DNA of 64,000 nucleotides, from the NCBI RefSeq assembly GCF_003334385.1, contig NZ_QOWN01000016.1; one strand, written 5' to 3'. Shown piece by piece: positions 53,121 to 63,082 of the stretch. Below the pieces are notes generated by a model. The model was not told the DNA's origin, did not search any database, and saw only the letters and a list, made by a program, of their open reading frames with translations. A program made the position numbers and the translations under genes. Origin of the DNA: Escherichia coli. GTDB lineage: Bacteria; Pseudomonadota; Gammaproteobacteria; Enterobacterales; Enterobacteriaceae. Numbering within the stretch: the first letter of the stretch is position 1; every line of letters starts with the position of its first letter.

Positions 53121-54453
<1,333 letters not shown>

Positions 54454-54472
54454 AACTTAGTTCGTTTTAAAG

Positions 54473-54497
54473 ATTCTGCAGACACTGTCTGCAGAAT
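54473..54497. repeat. perfect palindrome ATTCTGCAGAC-ACT-GTCTGCAGAAT between convergent nanQ and yhcG stops
   Basis: 11-bp perfect arms around core CAGAC-N3-GTCTG; same family as three copies inside yhcG and one after gltD. Confidence 0.85.
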
Positions 54498-54512
54498 TCG
54501 AAACCGCTGAAA

Positions 54513-55640
54513 TTAACGGCGTCTATAGCCTTCCTCTAGCACCGCCTGTGTTCGAACGAGTTCATCTGCGAGTCGTTTCTCATCAGGTAGTTGCATCTTA
54601 TATTCGCTTGCCAGAACGGTGTTAGGCAAACCTGCCAGAGCATAATGCGCTTCTCCGGCTCCTTTCTCTGCACAGAGAACCAGACCGATGGGCGGATTTT
54701 CATCCGGTAGCGTCCAGTGCTCTTTGGCGTAGTTGAGATACATATTCATCTGTCCGGCATCGCTATAGCTGAATTTGCCCACTTTTAGATCGACGATTAG
54801 CAGGCAGCGTAAACGGCGGTGGAAAAACAGCAGATCGACACGAAACCAGTTGTCATCAATGCGTAACCTTCGCTGCCGACCAACAAAGGCAAAATCATCC
54901 CCAAGTTCCAGCATGAAATCCATCAGGTGGTTGATCAGCGCCTCCTCAAAATCGGATTCTGAATATTCATCTTTCAATTCCAGAAATTCGAGCACAAAGG
55001 GATCGCGTATCGCCTGTTGCGGAAGAATATGCGTCTCGGCAGGAGCGTGTTGTTGCAGCATGGCTGATTTGTCATGTGACAGTAGTGTCCGCTCATAAAA
55101 CTGGGTCGCAATTTGCCGCTCTAGCTGGCGAACAGACCAGCCACAGCGGAGCGTCTCTTTTTCATAAAAGCTGCGGGCGTCAGCGTTTTTAACGGAAAGT
55201 AAACGGACGTAGGTGGACCTGGGCAAGGGGAAAGATTTGGCAGACAGCGTCTGCCAAATCTTTGCCGATGGGAATTCTGCAGACGGTGTCTGCGGAATTC
55301 CCAATGGTGTTAATTCGCCAGACATTGTCTGGCGAATTTCAACATGTTGAAAAAAGAGGTAAAAAAGCCTCATTTGGCGTAAGTTTTTTGCAGAGAACCC
55401 ACGCTTATACCTTAGACATAAATCCTTTGATAGTCGCTTGATTAGCTGCGCACCATACGCAGCCCTGGCCTCGCCACCTTGTTCAAATTCGACAATTCGT
55501 CGGCCAATTTCCTGGTACGTCGCGGTCATTAACGCGTTAACGCTACGTACCGTTTCCGTCCGGGCGCTATCGACCAGATGAATAATACCGTCGTGGATTT
55601 GCTGGTAGCCTGCTGTGGTTCCTTCTGAGAGCGATTCCAT
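54513..55640 (-). CDS. yhcG: DUF1016 / PD-(D/E)XK nuclease-like protein
   Basis: 375 aa; C-terminal region carries a D...D-L-K arrangement (FRVDLLFF...LLIVDLKVGKF) compatible with a restriction-endonuclease fold; linker has three in-frame palindromic DNA units. Confidence 0.85.
   Translation of the reverse strand: MESLSEGTTAGYQQIHDGIIHLVDSARTETVRSVNALMTATYQEIGRRIVEFEQGGEARAAYGAQLIKRLSKDLCLRYKRGFSAKNLRQMRLFYLFFQHVEIRQTMSGELTPLGIPQTPSAEFPSAKIWQTLSAKSFPLPRSTYVRLLSVKNADARSFYEKETLRCGWSVRQLERQIATQFYERTLLSHDKSAMLQQHAPAETHILPQQAIRDPFVLEFLELKDEYSESDFEEALINHLMDFMLELGDDFAFVGRQRRLRIDDNWFRVDLLFFHRRLRCLLIVDLKVGKFSYSDAGQMNMYLNYAKEHWTLPDENPPIGLVLCAEKGAGEAHYALAGLPNTVLASEYKMQLPDEKRLADELVRTQAVLEEGYRRR
55231..55338. 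repeat. three tandem palindromes (CAGAC-N3-GTCTG cores) embedded in-frame in yhcG
   Basis: 55231-55263 AAAGATTTGGCAGAC-AGC-GTCTGCCAAATCTTT (15-bp perfect arms); 55270-55302 GGGAATTCTGCAGAC-GGT-GTCTGCGGAATTCCC (1 mismatch); 55312-55338 AATTCGCCAGAC-ATT-GTCTGGCGAATT (12-bp perfect arms); encode EIRQTMSGE / IPQTPSAEF / KIWQTLSAK. Confidence 0.85.
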
Positions 55641-55824
55641 TATCTGTCCCTTTATATGGAGCTAAGTTGAATAATGGAATGAGCTATACTCTGGGGGGTG
55701 AGCACTGAACAATTAAGAACAGCGTATTACATTTACTTTCCCCAAGATATGCGAAGAGCTTTCCTGAAACATTAACCGATCGTATAAAACGAATGCCTGA
55801 TAGTACTCCTGTCCGGCATTGTTA

Positions 55825-56541
55825 TCACAAGTAGACTACGCTTATCACAGCTTTCCCATCAAGTTCGATTTTTTCTGAACCGCCTAAATCATTCGCGATA
55901 GATGCGCTCACCTGAAGCGGTATAATGGCGTTCGTTACAGGAGTTGGGGTTGTTTCACCTGGTTTTACAAAGGTGTAATAATAGCTTTGATCGACTGCAA
56001 GCGGATAAGCGGTGAGCGTTTGCCATGCTCTTTTTTGCCCTGTTATGACGGCATCTGCACCTGCTATTGATACAGCTAACGTCTGGCTACCATTGCTGGC
56101 ACTAATGTTGTTGCTATCAATTAACACGGCATAACTACCGATATTTTTATTATCTTTTGTTTTCCCTAAGCCGAATAAGCGCGTTGTCTGGCTAATATAA
56201 CCTCCGCCATTTAAGGTATATTTTACACCACTCTGACCCCCACTATCTTTTCCGGTGGTCATACTATCCATTCGTGTATCACGAGCGGTAATCGCAATGC
56301 TGGTAGCGGATTCGCAAGTTATAGTCATATTAATATTACGTGTTCCAATCTGTGTGTAGTGCTGCGTTGAAAGTCTATTGACTGAATGACTACCGAAGTT
56401 AACAACTCCGCCGTTGCTTAGTATTGGAGTACAAGCTGCAGCTTCCAGAGTCACCTTAACGTCAATTGATACTCTATCAGCGGCTTGCGCTGACATGGCA
56501 AAAAAGGCACTTCCGGCAATCAGTAATTTTACATTGTTCAT
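55825..56541 (-). CDS. yhcF: DUF1120 fimbrial-like periplasmic protein
   Basis: 238 aa, signal peptide; clear paralogue of GltF (ACTPILSNGGVVNFGSH vs ACTPVVTGGGIVDYGKH; C-terminal EKIELDGKAVISVVYL vs ETIKLDGNVTISVQYL). Confidence 0.85.
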   Translation of the reverse strand: MNNVKLLIAGSAFFAMSAQAADRVSIDVKVTLEAAACTPILSNGGVVNFGSHSVNRLSTQHYTQIGTRNINMTITCESATSIAITARDTRMDSMTTGKDSGGQSGVKYTLNGGGYISQTTRLFGLGKTKDNKNIGSYAVLIDSNNISASNGSQTLAVSIAGADAVITGQKRAWQTLTAYPLAVDQSYYYTFVKPGETTPTPVTNAIIPLQVSASIANDLGGSEKIELDGKAVISVVYL

Positions 56542-57083
56542 TTTGCCTCCACCAGGACCGTCAGATTGCCTGTAATATCTGTCATGTCGGTTAGTTCCCC
56601 TTCATCCTTAAAAGCTGGAGCCATTGTCAGTGTGAGGCTAACGCTTTTACCGCTATCAATTACCACTTCTTGACCATTTTGCATAAACACCAGCCAATTA
56701 TTGGGGGAAGTACTAATTGATGCTGTTCCTGTGCTGCCCGGATTGTCATTTTTGCCACTGGCTAACGCCAGGTCGAGATTGTTACTACCTGAAAATGCAT
56801 CGCTGGCGATCAGATTTAATGAACCATTCGGGCCAAATCCAAATCCGTTGTTGGAAATATTAGCGGTATTCAACTGAACACGAATATGAGCGTCCTGATC
56901 GCATTGCATTACCAGCGTGATTGTTCTGTCTGCTAATTGTGTTGTTTTACCCCGGTCAACTTGGCGCATGGCAGCACTTCGTTTGCCATAGTCGATATTT
57001 TGTATGCTACTGGAGATATTACACTCTGCCTGAGCGGCCATGGCGAAGTTCAGCAGCAGGCATCCTGTTATTATCCGTTTCAT
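56538..57083 (-). CDS. yhcE: fimbrial-like protein, intact
   Basis: about 181 aa from ATG at 57083 (MKRIITGCLLLNFAMAAQA signal peptide); ATGA overlaps with yhcD stop and yhcF start; uninterrupted here. Confidence 0.75.
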   Translation of the reverse strand: MKRIITGCLLLNFAMAAQAECNISSSIQNIDYGKRSAAMRQVDRGKTTQLADRTITLVMQCDQDAHIRVQLNTANISNNGFGFGPNGSLNLIASDAFSGSNNLDLALASGKNDNPGSTGTASISTSPNNWLVFMQNGQEVVIDSGKSVSLTLTMAPAFKDEGELTDMTDITGNLTVLVEAK

Positions 57084-59461
57084 TGGCACTCTCCTGTTGC
57101 TGTCTCATAGAACACATCTTTTGGTGCATCTTCTGGGAATGTAAGGTGAATACGGCATGATTGCTGCTCATCTTTTATATCTAGCACCATGTCCGGTTTG
57201 ATGTTATTGAGGAATACAACACCGTCATCCACTGATGTTGTCAGATAGTTGCCTTCACTATCTTCAATCGCAACGCCTCTGGGCAGTTTTTTGCCGTCGG
57301 AAAGTGTGATATTGAGTAATGCACGGCGTTGTGTTATCGCACTGAATCCGACTTTCCCTACTGCACCACGGCCTTGTTTGATCATTTTTGTGCCGTTACC
57401 GATATCGACATTTTTTGGCAAGCTGGCGGTATCGATCTCAACTCCTGATGTTCGCCACGACTGGATTGATGGAATGACGGCATTACCCCGAAAATCTGTC
57501 CATACTGGGCCTGCCTGAGATGTAATTCTGACACCTGCAATATTGTTATCCATTTTTGCGATGGCGAAAGTGTCATTGATAGTCCACGGTGAAAAGGTCA
57601 CTCCCTGATCATGTACGGCAATACCACCTGACATCGTACCGTTGTAAGTACGGCTATCACTGCCGCTTGCTCCTGCGGCAAGGCTGACTTGGGTGTAATG
57701 GAGATTGGAACTGATACTGCCGTTCAAGCTCGTTTCACGTTCGTCGTGATCTCGTTCAGCATTCACATAGTAGGACATCTCATCTGAGACGACTCCCATG
57801 ACACCAGTACCATAGTGGGTTTTATGATCGTCATGGCGAGTATACAGTGTGGCGGTGTTTGATCTGCCAAATGGAATACTGATGTTGACGTAGAACAGAT
57901 CACCATCGTCTTCATTATTTTCTGAAGCACTAAGTTGATGCTGCCAGTTGACGGAAACCGTGGCGTGTTTGAACGCTTTGTTCCAGTTAATATTAAGGTT
58001 GCTTGAGTCATTGTCACCGTCGTAACTATATGTTTTATAGCCACTGATGTTGAAACCACCCAGAATGGAGTTAGACCAGTTTAAACCAAGCGCATAAGTG
58101 CTTTTAGTCGGATCGGTATAATCATCATCAATCGCTTCAGACAGTTCGCGATAATGGCGATCAGATCGAGTGAGGCTGGTTGTTAGCCCAAGTGAAAATG
58201 GGAGATTGTAGTTCGCGTCAAGACGATATTTCTGTCCTTGCAGTGAGTCTTTCGTATCCTGCGATGTACTAATTTGGCTGCTCACTGTTAAATCGGGCAG
58301 GGGAACCAGACTCGACCGGATTGATGCCGCCTGATAATTTTCTGCTACGATAACGCCGCCGTTCATTGCACTCCAGCGTGTCAGATTCCATCCGCTCGAT
58401 GCACTAATTACCCAAGGTGATTCGTCATAGTCATCGTCTACCCGCCCTATCGCGAAGCGATAACCCTGGAAGCTTTCTACATGCTGATTAAACAGGGTGG
58501 AGGGAACAATATAGTTGTGCGAACTACCGTCTGTTTCGACAACGGTGACATTAAGATCACTATTACCATTGCGAACAGGTACATCAGGGATAGTGAATGC
58601 GCCCGCAGGAACCAGAATGGAATGAATTAAAACTCCTTGTTGACGAATCTCGACACGAGCCTGAGAGGTGTTGGCTATACCAGTAACTTGCACACCACTG
58701 CCGCTGGTTTGCAATGCGTTGTCCGGTGCGATTTCGATACCGTAAATACTGGCTCCTTCCAACACGCTATTATTGAGGTTAACTTCACCTGCTCGCATGA
58801 GTGTTTTAAGATCTGTAAAGGTACGTTGAAGGTAGGTTGACGAGTTCTGGTTACTGAATGTGCCATTTGTTTGTGTAAGGAACTGATGGCTGCGTAACAT
58901 CCAGTCATTAATATTAATCCCGCCTTCAAGTGCAGCCTGGGAGTAGTCCGAACTCCCATTAGAAAATTCTGCACGGCTGCTCATCAGAGAGTAGTTTAGC
59001 AGCGCAGCTGTTCCACCAGTTGCTGCGTTTGTGAGATCCAACCCTATGGGAATGATCGCCTGTGGTGAAACGATAATATCTAACGCTTCCTGGTTAGGTA
59101 ATGGTGTGATTGTGGTACCCGGGTAGGACAATATATAGTCGTAACAGCCATTTTTTTCTTCAGAAGGAATTTTTAAACCGGCTTGTTGCAGAAATGCCTG
59201 ATCAAGACAAATGTCGCCATTTTCATCAAAGCGCGTAGCAATGTTGCCTTTTTTTTCGCCATTTACTGATACTATCAGTGAATATTCACCTGGCAAAAAA
59301 CGGGCTGAACGGGAAAAATAATGCGATATATTAGGATCTACACCTAGTGATTTTAATGTTTCCCGATCAAAATCAACAGCGGCAATCTCTATACCATCTG
59401 CATTGGCTGGGGGAGAAAAGGCAAAACCAATGGTGTAGGCCAGTAACGTTTTTTTTAACAT
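57080..59461 (-). CDS. yhcD: fimbrial outer-membrane usher
   Basis: 793 aa from ATG at 59461 (MLKKTLLAYTIGFAF...); usher-sized beta-barrel protein; ORF track opens at an upstream TTG. Confidence 0.88.
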   Translation of the reverse strand: MLKKTLLAYTIGFAFSPPANADGIEIAAVDFDRETLKSLGVDPNISHYFSRSARFLPGEYSLIVSVNGEKKGNIATRFDENGDICLDQAFLQQAGLKIPSEEKNGCYDYILSYPGTTITPLPNQEALDIIVSPQAIIPIGLDLTNAATGGTAALLNYSLMSSRAEFSNGSSDYSQAALEGGININDWMLRSHQFLTQTNGTFSNQNSSTYLQRTFTDLKTLMRAGEVNLNNSVLEGASIYGIEIAPDNALQTSGSGVQVTGIANTSQARVEIRQQGVLIHSILVPAGAFTIPDVPVRNGNSDLNVTVVETDGSSHNYIVPSTLFNQHVESFQGYRFAIGRVDDDYDESPWVISASSGWNLTRWSAMNGGVIVAENYQAASIRSSLVPLPDLTVSSQISTSQDTKDSLQGQKYRLDANYNLPFSLGLTTSLTRSDRHYRELSEAIDDDYTDPTKSTYALGLNWSNSILGGFNISGYKTYSYDGDNDSSNLNINWNKAFKHATVSVNWQHQLSASENNEDDGDLFYVNISIPFGRSNTATLYTRHDDHKTHYGTGVMGVVSDEMSYYVNAERDHDERETSLNGSISSNLHYTQVSLAAGASGSDSRTYNGTMSGGIAVHDQGVTFSPWTINDTFAIAKMDNNIAGVRITSQAGPVWTDFRGNAVIPSIQSWRTSGVEIDTASLPKNVDIGNGTKMIKQGRGAVGKVGFSAITQRRALLNITLSDGKKLPRGVAIEDSEGNYLTTSVDDGVVFLNNIKPDMVLDIKDEQQSCRIHLTFPEDAPKDVFYETATGECQ

Positions 59462-59481
59462 CCTTGTCGCTCCAGGCAAAG

Positions 59482-60156
59482 TTATTTTAAGTCAGTGACA
59501 TATTTATTACCGCGATAACCATATCGGCTGGCTGGGTAAAACTCGACTTTTGTATCCGTAGCGTTTGTTAATGCAGTAGTTGTACTGGTGTGTGGTAGAA
59601 AATAGGTCTTATTTATAGCCCCCGTTTTTCCTGAAGGGAGCGTTTTAAATTGTAAGGTCATACGAACGACATAATTACTGGGGTTGCTAATCTCAATTTG
59701 GTCGCCATTTTTACGCCATTCCAGGAATTTCCAGGTCTCTCGCTCTTCCGGCAGGGAAGCCGGGTGGATCAGTACAGGTAGATCCTGACGAATTGAAACA
59801 GTAACTCTGCTGCTCTTGTCATCTTTTGGTGGAATACCTTCGAACGTTACGCGTTTCAGCTCTTCTGATTGCAGAGGAACAGTCGCCTGAAGTAAAAATC
59901 GAACCTGTTGTACTTGACCGGCTTCAACACGAATAACGGGCTGAGTCGGGATTAAACGAATTGATTTATTGCTTTCAGGCAAATCAACAATGGTGGTGTA
60001 AAGCAATGAAGGATGATCATCTGTATTCTTAATATTAATACTAGCTTCACCACGCTTTTCATCAACCAGCAATACTGATGTTTCAGGAACCATCCCTGTG
60101 GCTAAGGTATTCATTGATGTTGTTATAAATACAGTGAATGTAATGTGTCTGAGCAT
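59482..60156 (-). CDS. yhcA: fimbrial periplasmic chaperone (PapD-like)
   Basis: 224 aa, signal peptide, chaperone-sized; immediately upstream of the usher. Confidence 0.88.
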   Translation of the reverse strand: MLRHITFTVFITTSMNTLATGMVPETSVLLVDEKRGEASINIKNTDDHPSLLYTTIVDLPESNKSIRLIPTQPVIRVEAGQVQQVRFLLQATVPLQSEELKRVTFEGIPPKDDKSSRVTVSIRQDLPVLIHPASLPEERETWKFLEWRKNGDQIEISNPSNYVVRMTLQFKTLPSGKTGAINKTYFLPHTSTTTALTNATDTKVEFYPASRYGYRGNKYVTDLK

Positions 60157-60327
60157 TTAAATTAAAACTCCTGTAATAATGATAAATAACGCAGAAACAT
60201 ATTGTTAATATATGTTATGCACTGTTTGCGATGAGATTGATTAAGACAGACCATGTCATAGGGCATAATCTGTCCGAGTTATAGCTAACTGGTTAATGCG
60301 TAAAAATAAAAACTGTATTACAAGTTC

Positions 60328-61092
60328 TTATAAATACTGAACGCTGATAGTGACGTTACCATCCAGTTTGATCGTTTCATCAGAACCAAGAATAGTATTG
60401 TCATTTACCGCAGCATCAATCAGTAACGGGAAGGTGACCGCTGTAATGGCAACAGGTGTCAGTTCCCCTGTTTTTGCAACAGAATAACCGCGCTCGATTG
60501 CTGAGCAACTTGTCAGCGAGCAGAATGCGCCATTAGATGAGGCTTTCCATGTGGGGGTCGCTGCTGACCAGTGGTCAGTTTGAATCAGGTCGACAGGAAT
60601 TTCACCTGTATCGTCCGCCGCGTGAATCCCACCATTAGACCTGTCAATACCAATGGATGCAGCGCCAATTTTTTGTCCATTAGGCGCAGAACCTAAACCA
60701 AAGGCGTTTTTCGTTCCCTTCATATCTACGAGAGTATCATAAGCTTTTTCAATATAGGATGTGTCGTTTAACGCTACAATGGTCGACTGACGGTTATCCT
60801 TGGAGGTTACAGCAATTAGCGTTGGTGCTGTGCAGGTTATATTTAATGTGCTGTTTTTGCGGCCCAGTTGAACCAGTTTATTACTTTTACCGGTCGGATT
60901 CAGCGCACTGTTATGATGTTTCCCATAGTCAACAATGCCGCCGCCCGTAACAACTGGGGTACATGCACCAGGGGTATACTCGCCGATGATAGTTAATTCT
61001 GTATCAGTTGAATCTGTTGCCATGGCACTGAATGCTGCAACAGAAAGTGCTGCACAAATAGCAGCTGTTGTGAGGTTCTTTTTGAAAAACAT
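60328..61092 (-). CDS. gltF: DUF1120 periplasmic protein GltF
   Basis: 254 aa, signal peptide MFFKKNLTTAAICAALSVAAFSAMA; paralogue of YhcF. Confidence 0.88.
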   Translation of the reverse strand: MFFKKNLTTAAICAALSVAAFSAMATDSTDTELTIIGEYTPGACTPVVTGGGIVDYGKHHNSALNPTGKSNKLVQLGRKNSTLNITCTAPTLIAVTSKDNRQSTIVALNDTSYIEKAYDTLVDMKGTKNAFGLGSAPNGQKIGAASIGIDRSNGGIHAADDTGEIPVDLIQTDHWSAATPTWKASSNGAFCSLTSCSAIERGYSVAKTGELTPVAITAVTFPLLIDAAVNDNTILGSDETIKLDGNVTISVQYL

Positions 61093-61611
61093 ATGAACAT
61101 ATCCTTAATAACAAATTTATTTTTTAAAATAAAAAGCTGAAGCAGTATATATATCTGTTTGTGAATGTAAATAAATAACTCGTTCAGAAATAGCCAACTT
61201 GCTGGGATGTATTTATTTAATGAATTTTATAGTTACGATCATGTGAATAATAAGGTGCTGGTGAGGTGGTTTGTGGTGATAATTATTCATTACATGAATG
61301 TTTGCGCTGAAAAATAGGAAAATATATAGATAATTAAGGATAATATATTGGTTTTTTATATTCATATTTTGTATATTAATATCGAGACAATTTACATGGA
61401 ATGAAAAGACTGAATAGCTTGCAGAATCGGTATTGTCAGAGGTGTTAACAAGTAATTGAGACGGATTGTAAATGAGAAATTGCTTGATGTGCTTCACTCA
61501 TCAGACTTGGTGAACAAAGCACAATTTATTGAAAATTATCCCTATTATAGGAAAGGTCAAACGCTCATGCCGCATTTGCCAGAAAACAACGCGCACTTCG
61601 TCAGTAATTTG

Positions 61612-61636
61612 ATTCGCCAGACACAGTCTGGCGAAT
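61612..61636. repeat. perfect palindrome ATTCGCCAGAC-ACA-GTCTGGCGAAT just 3' of gltD
   Basis: 11-bp perfect arms; arm sequence identical to the yhcG-internal unit at 55312-55338; 16 bp from the gltD stop codon. Confidence 0.85.
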
Positions 61637-61651
61637 TCATTGTTACCTCGC

Positions 61652-63082
<1,431 letters not shown>

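Follow-up and report, generated by a model that had tools for sequence, protein, structure and literature searches.

A palindromic DNA unit native to the yhcG/DUF1016 nuclease gene family and its copies at the yhcG locus of Escherichia coli

Palindromic DNA within and between bacterial genes is known in several forms, with which five palindromes in and around the gene yhcG of Escherichia coli are compared here. They lie in a stretch of 64,000 nucleotides (contig NZ_QOWN01000016.1 of assembly GCF_003334385.1; hereafter the window), share the core CAGAC-NNN-GTCTG and prove to be copies of a DNA unit that is native to genes of the yhcG/DUF1016 family. Among the described systems, Rickettsia palindromic elements (RPEs) are said, after Ogata et al. 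in 2000, to be inserted in frame into genes. Like the yhcG units they are palindromic DNA tolerated in frame in permissive surface or loop regions, but RPEs measure 100-150 bp and occur in many copies in scattered, unrelated genes of Rickettsia only, whereas the yhcG units span at most 39 bp and occupy one position of one gene family. The REP consensus describes a palindrome of about 35 bp that is imperfect and has a conserved head. REP and BIME sequences resemble the present copies as short palindromes between convergent genes and as possible sites of rearrangement; REPs, however, are extragenic, linked to RAYT transposases, defined by a consensus of their own and present in hundreds of copies per genome, whereas the yhcG unit has perfect arms and a 3-nt loop, occurs at 1-3 sites per E. 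coli genome (about 1-2 in most) and is found chiefly within the gene, as are three of the five copies of the window. The REP consensus as quoted in PMC7967276 also differs from the yhcG unit. ERIC/IRU elements are imperfect palindromes of about 127 bp found in intergenic regions that are transcribed, against 25-33 bp for the units, and a permissive Rfam scan of positions 54300-61800 (E <=1) returned no match. The original prediction had recognised neither REP nor ERIC in these palindromes, and copy number, unit size, consensus and the empty Rfam scan all agree with it. The unit is likewise set apart from MITE-like elements by its low copy number, its single locus and the lack of a conserved neighbour gene in 80 related loci, and from CRISPR arrays by arms that differ, by units only 6-9 nt apart and by their translation in frame.

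Two further systems share features with the yhcG array. PARCEL repeats (PMC2996958) are tandem and intragenic, consist of dyad-symmetric coding DNA, vary in copy number, spread horizontally and are linked to the mobilome, and yhcG of the window does hold three palindromic coding units in tandem at 39-bp spacing. PARCEL is nevertheless a 25-residue amphipathic motif that forms long tracts in mostly membrane-targeted proteins, whereas the yhcG units are of 13 residues (39 bp), number one to three, lie in one disordered loop of a PD-(D/E)XK family and do not conserve the peptide; judged from its description, the 25-residue amphipathic motif has no equivalent in the 13-residue unit of this cytoplasmic-type nuclease. 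Template switching at quasipalindromes, on the other hand, has been documented in E. coli with thyA and lacZ reporters (PMC7202029) and proposed to create and maintain perfect stems through multi-base compensatory changes (PMC8794818). Such hotspots and the yhcG unit are both short-loop inverted repeats in which changes keep the arms complementary, involve several bases and leave no one-sided intermediates, and in both one arm appears to be copied from the other, as in unit 3 of K-12, seemingly templated from the coding flank for AKSFP. A hotspot of this sort is marked by a replication-dependent rise in mutation rate, which the 3' exonucleases ExoI and ExoVII limit. The known cases are single mutational events or belong to the evolution of RNA genes, whereas the yhcG palindrome is fixed in a coding gene family across phyla, both in tandem and as solo copies. 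Dyad-symmetric coding DNA as such is known from PARCEL, RPEs and quasipalindromes; the yhcG unit differs from these in its size, its confinement to one loop of one nuclease family and its breadth across phyla. A literature search on yhcG palindromes, DUF1016 and PDC-S02 found no earlier description of these palindromes.

The palindromic unit in the window and in the gene family

An exact search of the window located the core at 54479, 55241, 55280, 55319 and 61618, that is five times where 0.03 is expected by chance and where 0 of 100 dinucleotide-preserving shuffles gave five. Together with direct reading, this search upheld the five palindromes and the arm sub-types first reported. When degenerate copies were sought over the whole window with 2 mismatches allowed, 30 were found against 20.9 expected, no excess over chance. 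The unit takes the form ATT-NNN-CAGAC-NNN-GTCTG-NNN-AAT with variable extensions, for a length of about 25-33 bp. Three copies are on the minus strand within yhcG. Unit 1 (55312-55338), at the position shared by the family, has 12-nt arms AATTCGCCAGAC and encodes EIRQTMSGEL; unit 2 (55270-55302) encodes GIPQTPSAEFP and has 15-nt arms with one mismatch (T.G; C.A on the mRNA strand); unit 3 (55231-55263) encodes KIWQTLSAKSF and has 15-nt arms, AAAGATTTGGCAGAC-AGC-GTCTGCCAAATCTTT. Their cores are spaced by exactly 39 bp and are read in frame as IRQTMSGE / IPQTPSAE / IWQTLSAK, which confirms the reiterated peptide noticed at first. The two remaining copies are intergenic and without assigned strand. 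On the nanQ side, between the convergent nanQ and yhcG stops, the palindrome at 54473-54497 has 11-nt arms, ATTCTGCAGAC-ACT-GTCTGCAGAAT; on the gltD side, the palindrome at 61612-61636 has 11-nt arms, ATTCGCCAGAC-ACA-GTCTGGCGAAT, and lies 15 nt from the gltD stop, a distance previously given as 16 bp. The arm ATTCGCCAGAC is found at 55312 and 61612 and the arm ATTCTGCAGAC at 54473 and 55270, the arms of the gltD-side copy being those of in-gene unit 1. For each unit a single-stranded DNA hairpin of -10.9 to -18.5 kcal/mol is predicted, with z-scores of -5.3 to -7.8.

The host gene yhcG (54513-55640, minus strand) encodes a protein of 375 aa with two domains, DUF1016_N (residues 19-184; PF17761, E=1.3e-36) and, after it, the PD-(D/E)XK nuclease domain YhcG_C (residues 208-360; PF06250, E=1.6e-56). 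The protein matches PADLOC PDC-S02 (E=2.8e-131), a candidate single-gene defence system; NCBIfam has no family for it, and a sequence search of the PDB gave insignificant matches only. Modelling with AlphaFold2 from an alignment of 66 diverse sequences reached a mean confidence (pLDDT) of 83 and superseded an earlier run on a shallow alignment of close relatives, whose pLDDT of 48 made it unusable. In the model, residues 97-123 are coil and residues 105-123 fall below a pLDDT of 50, and consequently units 1 and 2 encode a predicted disordered loop of the N-terminal helical domain. The repeats thus fall inside the Pfam DUF1016_N match and not in an inter-domain linker, as had been supposed. By Foldseek, the nuclease domain of the model is nearest to NucS/EndoMS and Can2, a result that bears on this domain alone and not on the palindrome. 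Across the family, which counts 21,241 cluster representatives at E <=0.001, the length of the loop varies between about 10 and about 90 residues, and repeated motifs resembling I-x-Q-T-x-S are frequent in it; the loop is predicted to be a permissive site for the palindrome.

A peptide-seeded scan, restricted to one genome per species, brought together the 80 related loci, which span Enterobacteriaceae, Paraburkholderia/Burkholderia, Coxiellaceae, Propionibacteriaceae, Bifidobacteriaceae, cyanobacteria, Gemmataceae, Acidobacteria, Verrucomicrobia, Chryseobacterium and Chloroflexota. By our tally, CAGAC-N3-GTCTG is present in about 65 of the 80, at some 270-340 nt from the start of the gene; most of these copies have perfect 11-14-nt arms, and in genes with an intact frame the core is read in frame as I-x-Q-T-x-S. 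Loci without this core have different palindromes at the same place, such as GATTCTGGAATC-AGC-GATTCCAGAATC. The unit is therefore found at one position of one gene family, just upstream of an LSWSH/PLPWS motif, in at least 8 phyla including Actinobacteria, Planctomycetes and Bacteroidota, and the 200 nt that precede the PLPWS motif have 125 times the density of perfect palindromes with arms of at least 10 nt that is seen in the other 296 kb of the loci. The original prediction had asked whether YhcG orthologues might carry the repeats where palindromic DNA is absent; relatives instead carry palindromes at the site, and this extends to plasmid homologues of only 28-39% identity, 9 of 12 of which have one at residues 95-110, abutting an LSWSH/LTWTH/LPWGH motif, with cores that include GTGAC/GTCAC, GTATC/GATAC, GCAGCAG/CTGTTGC and CGCACAG/CTGTGCG.

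Among close relatives the protein measures 349, 356, 362, 370, 375 or 382 aa, differences that arise because the number of 13-residue units varies from one to three; Salmonella, Citrobacter and Kluyvera have one, and each step is of 39 bp with the frame kept. The proposal that a small palindromic element had been inserted or amplified in yhcG consequently stands as far as amplification is concerned, relatives having 1-3 units, but not as insertion of a mobile element, since the basal unit is ancestral and holds a fixed position in many phyla.

Some further observations concern the gene and its annotation. The sub-models of PDC-S02 are often short, covering the N-terminal 100-115 residues only or the C-terminal part only, and they break near the position of the palindrome (YhcG residues ~100-115, window ~55300-55340); there is a suggestion that open reading frames (ORFs) of the family are frequently split or truncated near the palindrome in databases. 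An IS1 is inserted in the yhcG interval of E. coli NT1F10 (H1, NZ_CP075462.1 533761-535838), and several other strains have a transposase in place of the C-terminal part of yhcG. A candidate antisense RNA, G0-10703, is divergent from yhcG and overlaps its 5' untranslated region by 128 bp (PMC7967276); the corresponding region, 55641-55770 of the window, falls outside the palindromes.

Constraint on the DNA of the unit

What is conserved in these units is the Watson-Crick self-complementarity of the DNA and not the peptide. With stem pairs numbered from the loop in a set of 90 distinct units, positions 1-5 and 9-11 are conserved and the middle of the stem covaries, pairs 6, 7 and 8 showing 40, 26 and 42 two-sided changes (108 in total) and 0 one-sided changes. 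The covariation score is 0.263 versus 0.098 after shuffling, is reached in 0 of 500 shuffles and collapses when the pairing register is slid. Mismatches between the arms comprise 9 G.T and 11 A.C, with no excess of G.T; likewise, in an independent metagenome sample where pairing of the middle was not required, 169 of 201 pairs among the matches listed were Watson-Crick, 8 were G.T and 15 were A.C.

The codons of the unit were examined as well. A first test of the Ser and Gln codons was circular, the units having been chosen by their DNA motif, and was redone on units defined by the peptide Q-T-x-S only; in these, Ser is TCT in 53 of 53 cases (background 11%) and Gln is CAG in 53 of 53. At loci with a GC content of at least 0.58, Ile is encoded by ATT in 33 of 35 cases (background 22%) and the Glu, Lys or Gln codon ends in A in 41 of 41 (background 34%). 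By our reading of the aligned units, even the residues track the dyad: Val (GTG) occurs with Ala-Gln (GCA CAA), Arg (CGC) with Gly-Glu (GGC GAA) and Phe (TTC) with Gly-Lys (GGA AAA). In one lineage (L011/L014/L016), the palindrome ATTCGCCAGAC-AGT-GTCTGaCGAAT stands at the same place of an intact 343-aa ORF in another codon phase and is read as EFARQCLTNLSWS. This alternative phase belongs to a single lineage, the usual one being found, among the matches listed, at 20 of 23 viral and 88 of 90 metagenome sites. Because covariation is of Watson-Crick type only, synonymous codons are fixed and one lineage is phase-shifted, the phenomenon is one of DNA, and the earlier view that ordinary codon evolution does not explain it is sustained.

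Compensatory covariation is also the classic signature of a functional RNA stem, and the stems on the transcribed strand are strong, so that the units might be mRNA hairpins within the coding sequence that control translation or message stability of a potentially toxic nuclease, the intergenic copies stabilising 3' ends. Such a role would nonetheless have to accommodate the lack of G.U intermediates and of any one-sided change in pairs 6-8, sense-strand mismatches of wobble type that are not enriched over A.C, and the C.A mismatch that unit 2 of K-12 has on the mRNA strand. In addition, the solo intergenic copies occur in either orientation, Rfam yielded no match, and the loops are minimal, with 3 nt or, in distant relatives, 1 nt, which is pure dyad symmetry and does not resemble evolved RNA loops. 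Taken together, the covariation, codon, phase, loop and Rfam evidence favours pairing or symmetry of the DNA over an RNA stem, and mRNA hairpins are considered improbable. Programmed frameshifting was also considered and rejected: a TTTTTTC run stands upstream of the hairpin in K-12, but none does in Salmonella or Citrobacter.

Maintenance of the array and the nanQ-gltD haplotypes

For the upkeep of the unit, the account preferred here, and given about an even chance of being right, is that a hairpin or cruciform former, lodged in a permissive loop, is kept perfect by template switching and constitutes a hotspot for slippage, cassette exchange and deletion. According to this account, the unit would behave as a hairpin- or cruciform-forming sequence, and intrastrand template switching during replication would copy one arm from the other, altering both sides in a single step and thereby keeping and extending their complementarity. 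Hairpin-promoted slippage would duplicate and delete units, while breakage or recombination at the array would yield the allele cassette, stray copies and the large deletion described below. Both intergenic copies of the window would then be derivatives of yhcG's own unit and neither terminators nor ends of a mobile island.

Two-sided changes without intermediates, as observed in the stem, would be explained by intrastrand template switching since this process yields exactly such changes; as a sequence pattern, the changes do keep the arms complementary and appear templated from the other arm. In unit 3, one arm is GCCAAATCTTT, the conserved coding flank for AKSFP, and the other arm is its reverse complement. 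The GCCAAATCTTT flank is present without a palindrome in the A30 allele, a related GCCAAAACATTCCC is present in Salmonella and Citrobacter, and in one E. coli (L018) the unit-3 palindrome is stretched to 18-nt arms that reach into the F-P codons. The arm pattern of unit 3 thus reads as a direct footprint of template switching.

The array is also unstable, as gain and loss of units by 39 bp at a time and a deletion in O157:H7 show. In O157:H7, yhcG has an 80-bp frameshifting deletion inside the array, and the unit that is left, unit 1, is identical at 25 of 25 positions to the solo intergenic palindrome of strain E302. In the O157:H7 strain F6321 (L001 414-1461), yhcG is annotated as a frameshifted pseudogene, the 80-bp deletion taking two of the three units. 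The K-12 and A30 alleles of yhcG agree at 98-100% of positions over the gene, except at nt 211-405, where identity drops to 45-76%. This hypervariable cassette of about 190 nt (55236-55430 of the window, minus strand) comprises the palindrome array and ~90 nt upstream, and its 3' edge is exactly the last palindrome. Two cassette haplotypes, NLRQMR..FQHVEI and NLWQFK..FQRIEI, are each common to Escherichia, Salmonella, Citrobacter and Pseudocitrobacter; they suggest recombinational exchange at the spot of the array and look like a trans-genus polymorphism or recurrent exchange.

Several points weigh against the template-switch account. It covers the maintenance of the palindrome, not its origin or its persistence at one site of one family across phyla, and this persistence suggests selection for something that the account does not name. 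The core CAGAC/GTCTG is kept in solo copies and in the phase-shifted lineage, free of the Q-T-x-S coding constraint, where neutral concerted drift should erode it, though this is weak evidence because the solo and phase-shifted copies were found by a pattern that demands the core. The sequences are moreover phylogenetically related, so the counts are of non-independent events, and the account offers no reconstructed origin for the gltD-side copy.

The history of the intergenic copies was followed in 5426 complete E. coli genomes, by haplotype counts and BLAST. Searched with three arm variants, the genomes gave a median of 2-3 places each, which amounts to about 1-2 sites since a palindromic query matches both strands; all copies of these variants are at the yhcG locus, with 1-3 sites per genome, and none was found on plasmids, a count that copies with novel arms would escape. 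Three arrangements were distinguished. In the most frequent (configuration ii, 3140 genomes, 58%), the order is gltD, a GC-rich hairpin, yhcG, palindrome and nanQ, without a gltD-side palindrome. In the K-12 form (configuration iii, 1234 genomes), it is gltD, palindrome, gltF-yhcADEF, yhcG, palindrome and nanQ. Configuration i (947 genomes, 17%) has a nanQ-gltD gap of 67 bp with one palindrome, whose left flank is that of the nanQ side and whose right flank is that of the gltD side of K-12. In Salmonella, Citrobacter and Pseudocitrobacter, yhcG directly follows gltD. From this adjacency in other genera and the three arrangements in E. coli, a history running from ii to iii to i can be drawn: gltD and yhcG were neighbours ancestrally, gltF-yhcADEF was inserted between them, and configuration i, which lacks exactly the 7.1 kb from one intergenic palindrome to the other, is a deletion.

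The fimbrial gltF-yhcADEF block (55770-61651, left limit approximate, minus strand) is inserted between gltD and yhcG in K-12-type strains. Homology with block-free strains is interrupted from ~130 bp before the yhcG start codon to the gltD stop, and at the former point, the yhcG-side junction of the block, no palindrome is found. The gltD-side palindrome and its flank occur in configurations i and iii only (~2240 genomes) and are absent where yhcG abuts gltD. Among the genera sampled, the nanQ-side copy occurs in Escherichia only (L018, L019, L028, L034). By our reading its flanks share ~55 nt with the in-gene unit region (TTTCAGC...GAATCT..AAAA), and a read-through variant (P0021) translates it as FQRFRILQTLSGES; it is probably a stray copy of the yhcG loop unit. 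As a separate matter, the chaperone-usher block gltF-yhcADEF is present at this junction in only 1234 of the 5426 complete genomes, and gltF is therefore an accessory insertion downstream of gltD and not an ancestral member of the gltBD operon.

These results bear on the proposal that the two intergenic copies mark recombination boundaries. The comparison of block endpoints recommended with it was informative, as the 67-bp nanQ-gltD gap of strains lacking the block holds one palindrome with the K-12 flank on each side. The two copies do bound the deletion of 947 genomes, but they are not the borders of a single yhcG-yhcFEDA-gltF island, given that gltD-yhcG is the ancestral arrangement, that 3140 genomes have no gltD-side copy and that only gltF-yhcADEF was inserted. 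The same data speak to the related idea of a small mobile, MITE- or REP-like palindrome inserted in yhcG and in intergenic DNA, its outer copies delimiting a mobile yhcG-to-gltF island. Mobility would agree with deletion endpoints that coincide with the two intergenic copies, with solo copies in many unrelated intergenic contexts of metagenomes and viral contigs, and with one phage ORF and a few others that hold the unit in frame. It is, however, at odds with 1-3 sites per E. coli genome that are all at the yhcG locus and never on plasmids, with a fixed position in one gene family across phyla and with 80 loci that show neither an associated transposase nor a conserved neighbour gene. An island of this kind further conflicts with the ancestral place of yhcG beside gltD, with its other junction, which has no palindrome, and with the 58% of E. 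coli genomes that have yhcG without the gltD-side copy. The mobile-element model is thus largely contradicted and considered very improbable.

The position of the intergenic copies, between convergent genes or just past gltD, and the perfect dyad symmetry about an odd centre could also be those of bidirectional intrinsic terminators or of an operator for a symmetric regulator unrelated to YhcG. A consensus terminator scan of both strands made no call at 54473-54497 or 61612-61636, and no T-run follows either copy, the sequences after the nanQ-side copy being TCGAAACC / CTTTAAAAC and those after the gltD-side copy TCATTGTT / CAAATTAC; the terminator role once suggested for them is consequently not supported, and in strains of the ancestral arrangement another hairpin, rich in GC, follows gltD. 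As to an operator, stem positions unread by the protein would lose complementarity, and the phyla in which the unit occurs have no conserved regulator in common; neighbours are unrelated, clustering of the neighbours of the 80 loci having given no partner gene common across phyla. The MetJ box, AGACGTCT, was tried as a candidate and rejected, the half-sites in the palindromes being 3 nt apart. An unrelated operator or a terminator is accordingly given hardly any credence.

Solo palindromes and a possible cognate site of YhcG

Outside E. coli, viral and metagenome contigs were scanned with the pattern ATT-N3-CAGAC-N3-GTCTG-N3-AAT, which gave 41 sites in the former and at least 135 in the latter. 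Among the matches listed, 23 of 41 viral and 90 of 135 metagenome sites are inside DUF1016 ORFs, about 60-67%. The 45 metagenome sites listed outside such ORFs have, for the most part, fully or nearly complementary middle triplets and are therefore not chance matches; among them a DUF1016 homologue lies within 1.5 kb of only 7, and 25 of the 31 inspected are intergenic. In one phage ORF and a few others the unit is in frame. Among the annotated neighbours of solo sites are a conjugative relaxase, topoisomerase III and a tyrosine recombinase to which an HsdS fragment is fused, and other neighbours, recognised by reading of the sequence alone, are presumably HsdS, HsdR and AbiEi-like proteins. 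Solo sites and DUF1016 genes thus occupy one niche, amid mobile elements and defence genes. Like configuration i, a solo site may be the scar left by a lost gene, or else it may be acted on in trans.

Individual solo sites and unrelated palindromes were also noted. In four metagenome contigs (L151 1254, L222 6898, L174 1846 and L204 2273), solo palindromes stand 6-52 bp past the ends of relaxase or topoisomerase III genes and beside the tyrosine recombinase-HsdS fusion, with no DUF1016 within 1.5 kb. Two viral contigs (L110 5813-5837 and L128 1209-1233) have an AT-rich unit, ATTTAACAGAC-AAT-GTCTGTTAAAT, between ORFs which, from their sequence, we take to be HNH-endonuclease-like and RhuM-like. 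RhuM is, like DUF1016, a frequent passenger of type I restriction-modification operons (PMC9881135). In Burkholderia diffusa (L053 5488-5760), three unrelated perfect palindromes with 12-15-nt arms lie ~1.4-1.7 kb downstream of the yhcG homologue; one of them, TCTCTCCGC...GCGGAGAGA, recurs in another locus (L049) and may represent a separate Burkholderia repeat family. A metagenome-assembled genome of Prosthecobacter (L082 2521-2567) has a perfect palindrome with 22-nt arms, GAACCACCGAAACCACCAAAAC-CGG-..., ~450 nt upstream of the yhcG homologue.

The specific association with DUF1016 ORFs (23 of 41 viral and 90 of 135 metagenome sites, among the matches listed) raises the question of whether the YhcG-family nuclease itself, as a dimeric PD-(D/E)XK protein that would read a hairpin, cruciform or symmetric duplex, has its cognate cis site in the palindrome. 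This, the leading alternative, is regarded as rather unlikely, and it does not exclude template switching, which could still maintain the palindrome. The loop-proximal CAGAC and the stem-base ATT would be read and the middle of the stem would need only to pair; the site would serve autoregulation, self-marking or the start of gene conversion, and solo palindromes would be targets in trans. Conserved positions 1-5 and 9-11 around a covarying middle are indeed the pattern of protein-recognised hairpins, and the core holds GAC-N3-GTC, an interrupted palindrome such as dimeric PD-(D/E)XK restriction enzymes cut. Solo copies share the niche of DUF1016 (relaxases, topoisomerase III, HsdS/HsdR and recombinases), the core persists under a different coding constraint, and relatives with other cores have other palindromes at the site, as if specificity co-evolved with the protein; the cassette that ends at the array likewise resembles a conversion tract from a break there. 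Against a cognate site stands the presence in one gene of three units whose middle triplets differ, and no palindrome was detected in 3 of 12 distant homologues. Moreover, a gene bearing its own cleavage site would require a protection mechanism, and E. coli strains without yhcG retain a solo palindrome with no obvious partner.

Altogether, the finding accounts for the variable length of YhcG, for the pseudogene of O157:H7 and for the three nanQ-gltD haplotypes, and it provides a clean natural case in which a constraint on nucleic acid overrides codon choice and even residue identity. Should the palindrome maintain itself, it would be an instance of long-lived concerted evolution driven by template switching inside a gene, and perfect compensatory covariation need not then imply a functional RNA. 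Restriction-modification and BREX operons, plasmids and conjugative elements recurrently carry members of the DUF1016 family, which is uncharacterised. It is conceivable, although doubtful, that every yhcG/DUF1016 nuclease gene embeds a hairpin or cruciform that its product recognises, for autoregulation, self-marking or the start of a gene conversion that would exchange the adjacent sensor-loop cassette and help the gene to spread, with solo palindromes as trans targets. Only if this were true would the phenomenon be categorically new: a protein-coding gene of a candidate anti-phage family would then carry, across phyla, an embedded cognate structural site in its DNA, and the palindrome would give the first experimental handle on what YhcG/DUF1016 recognises.

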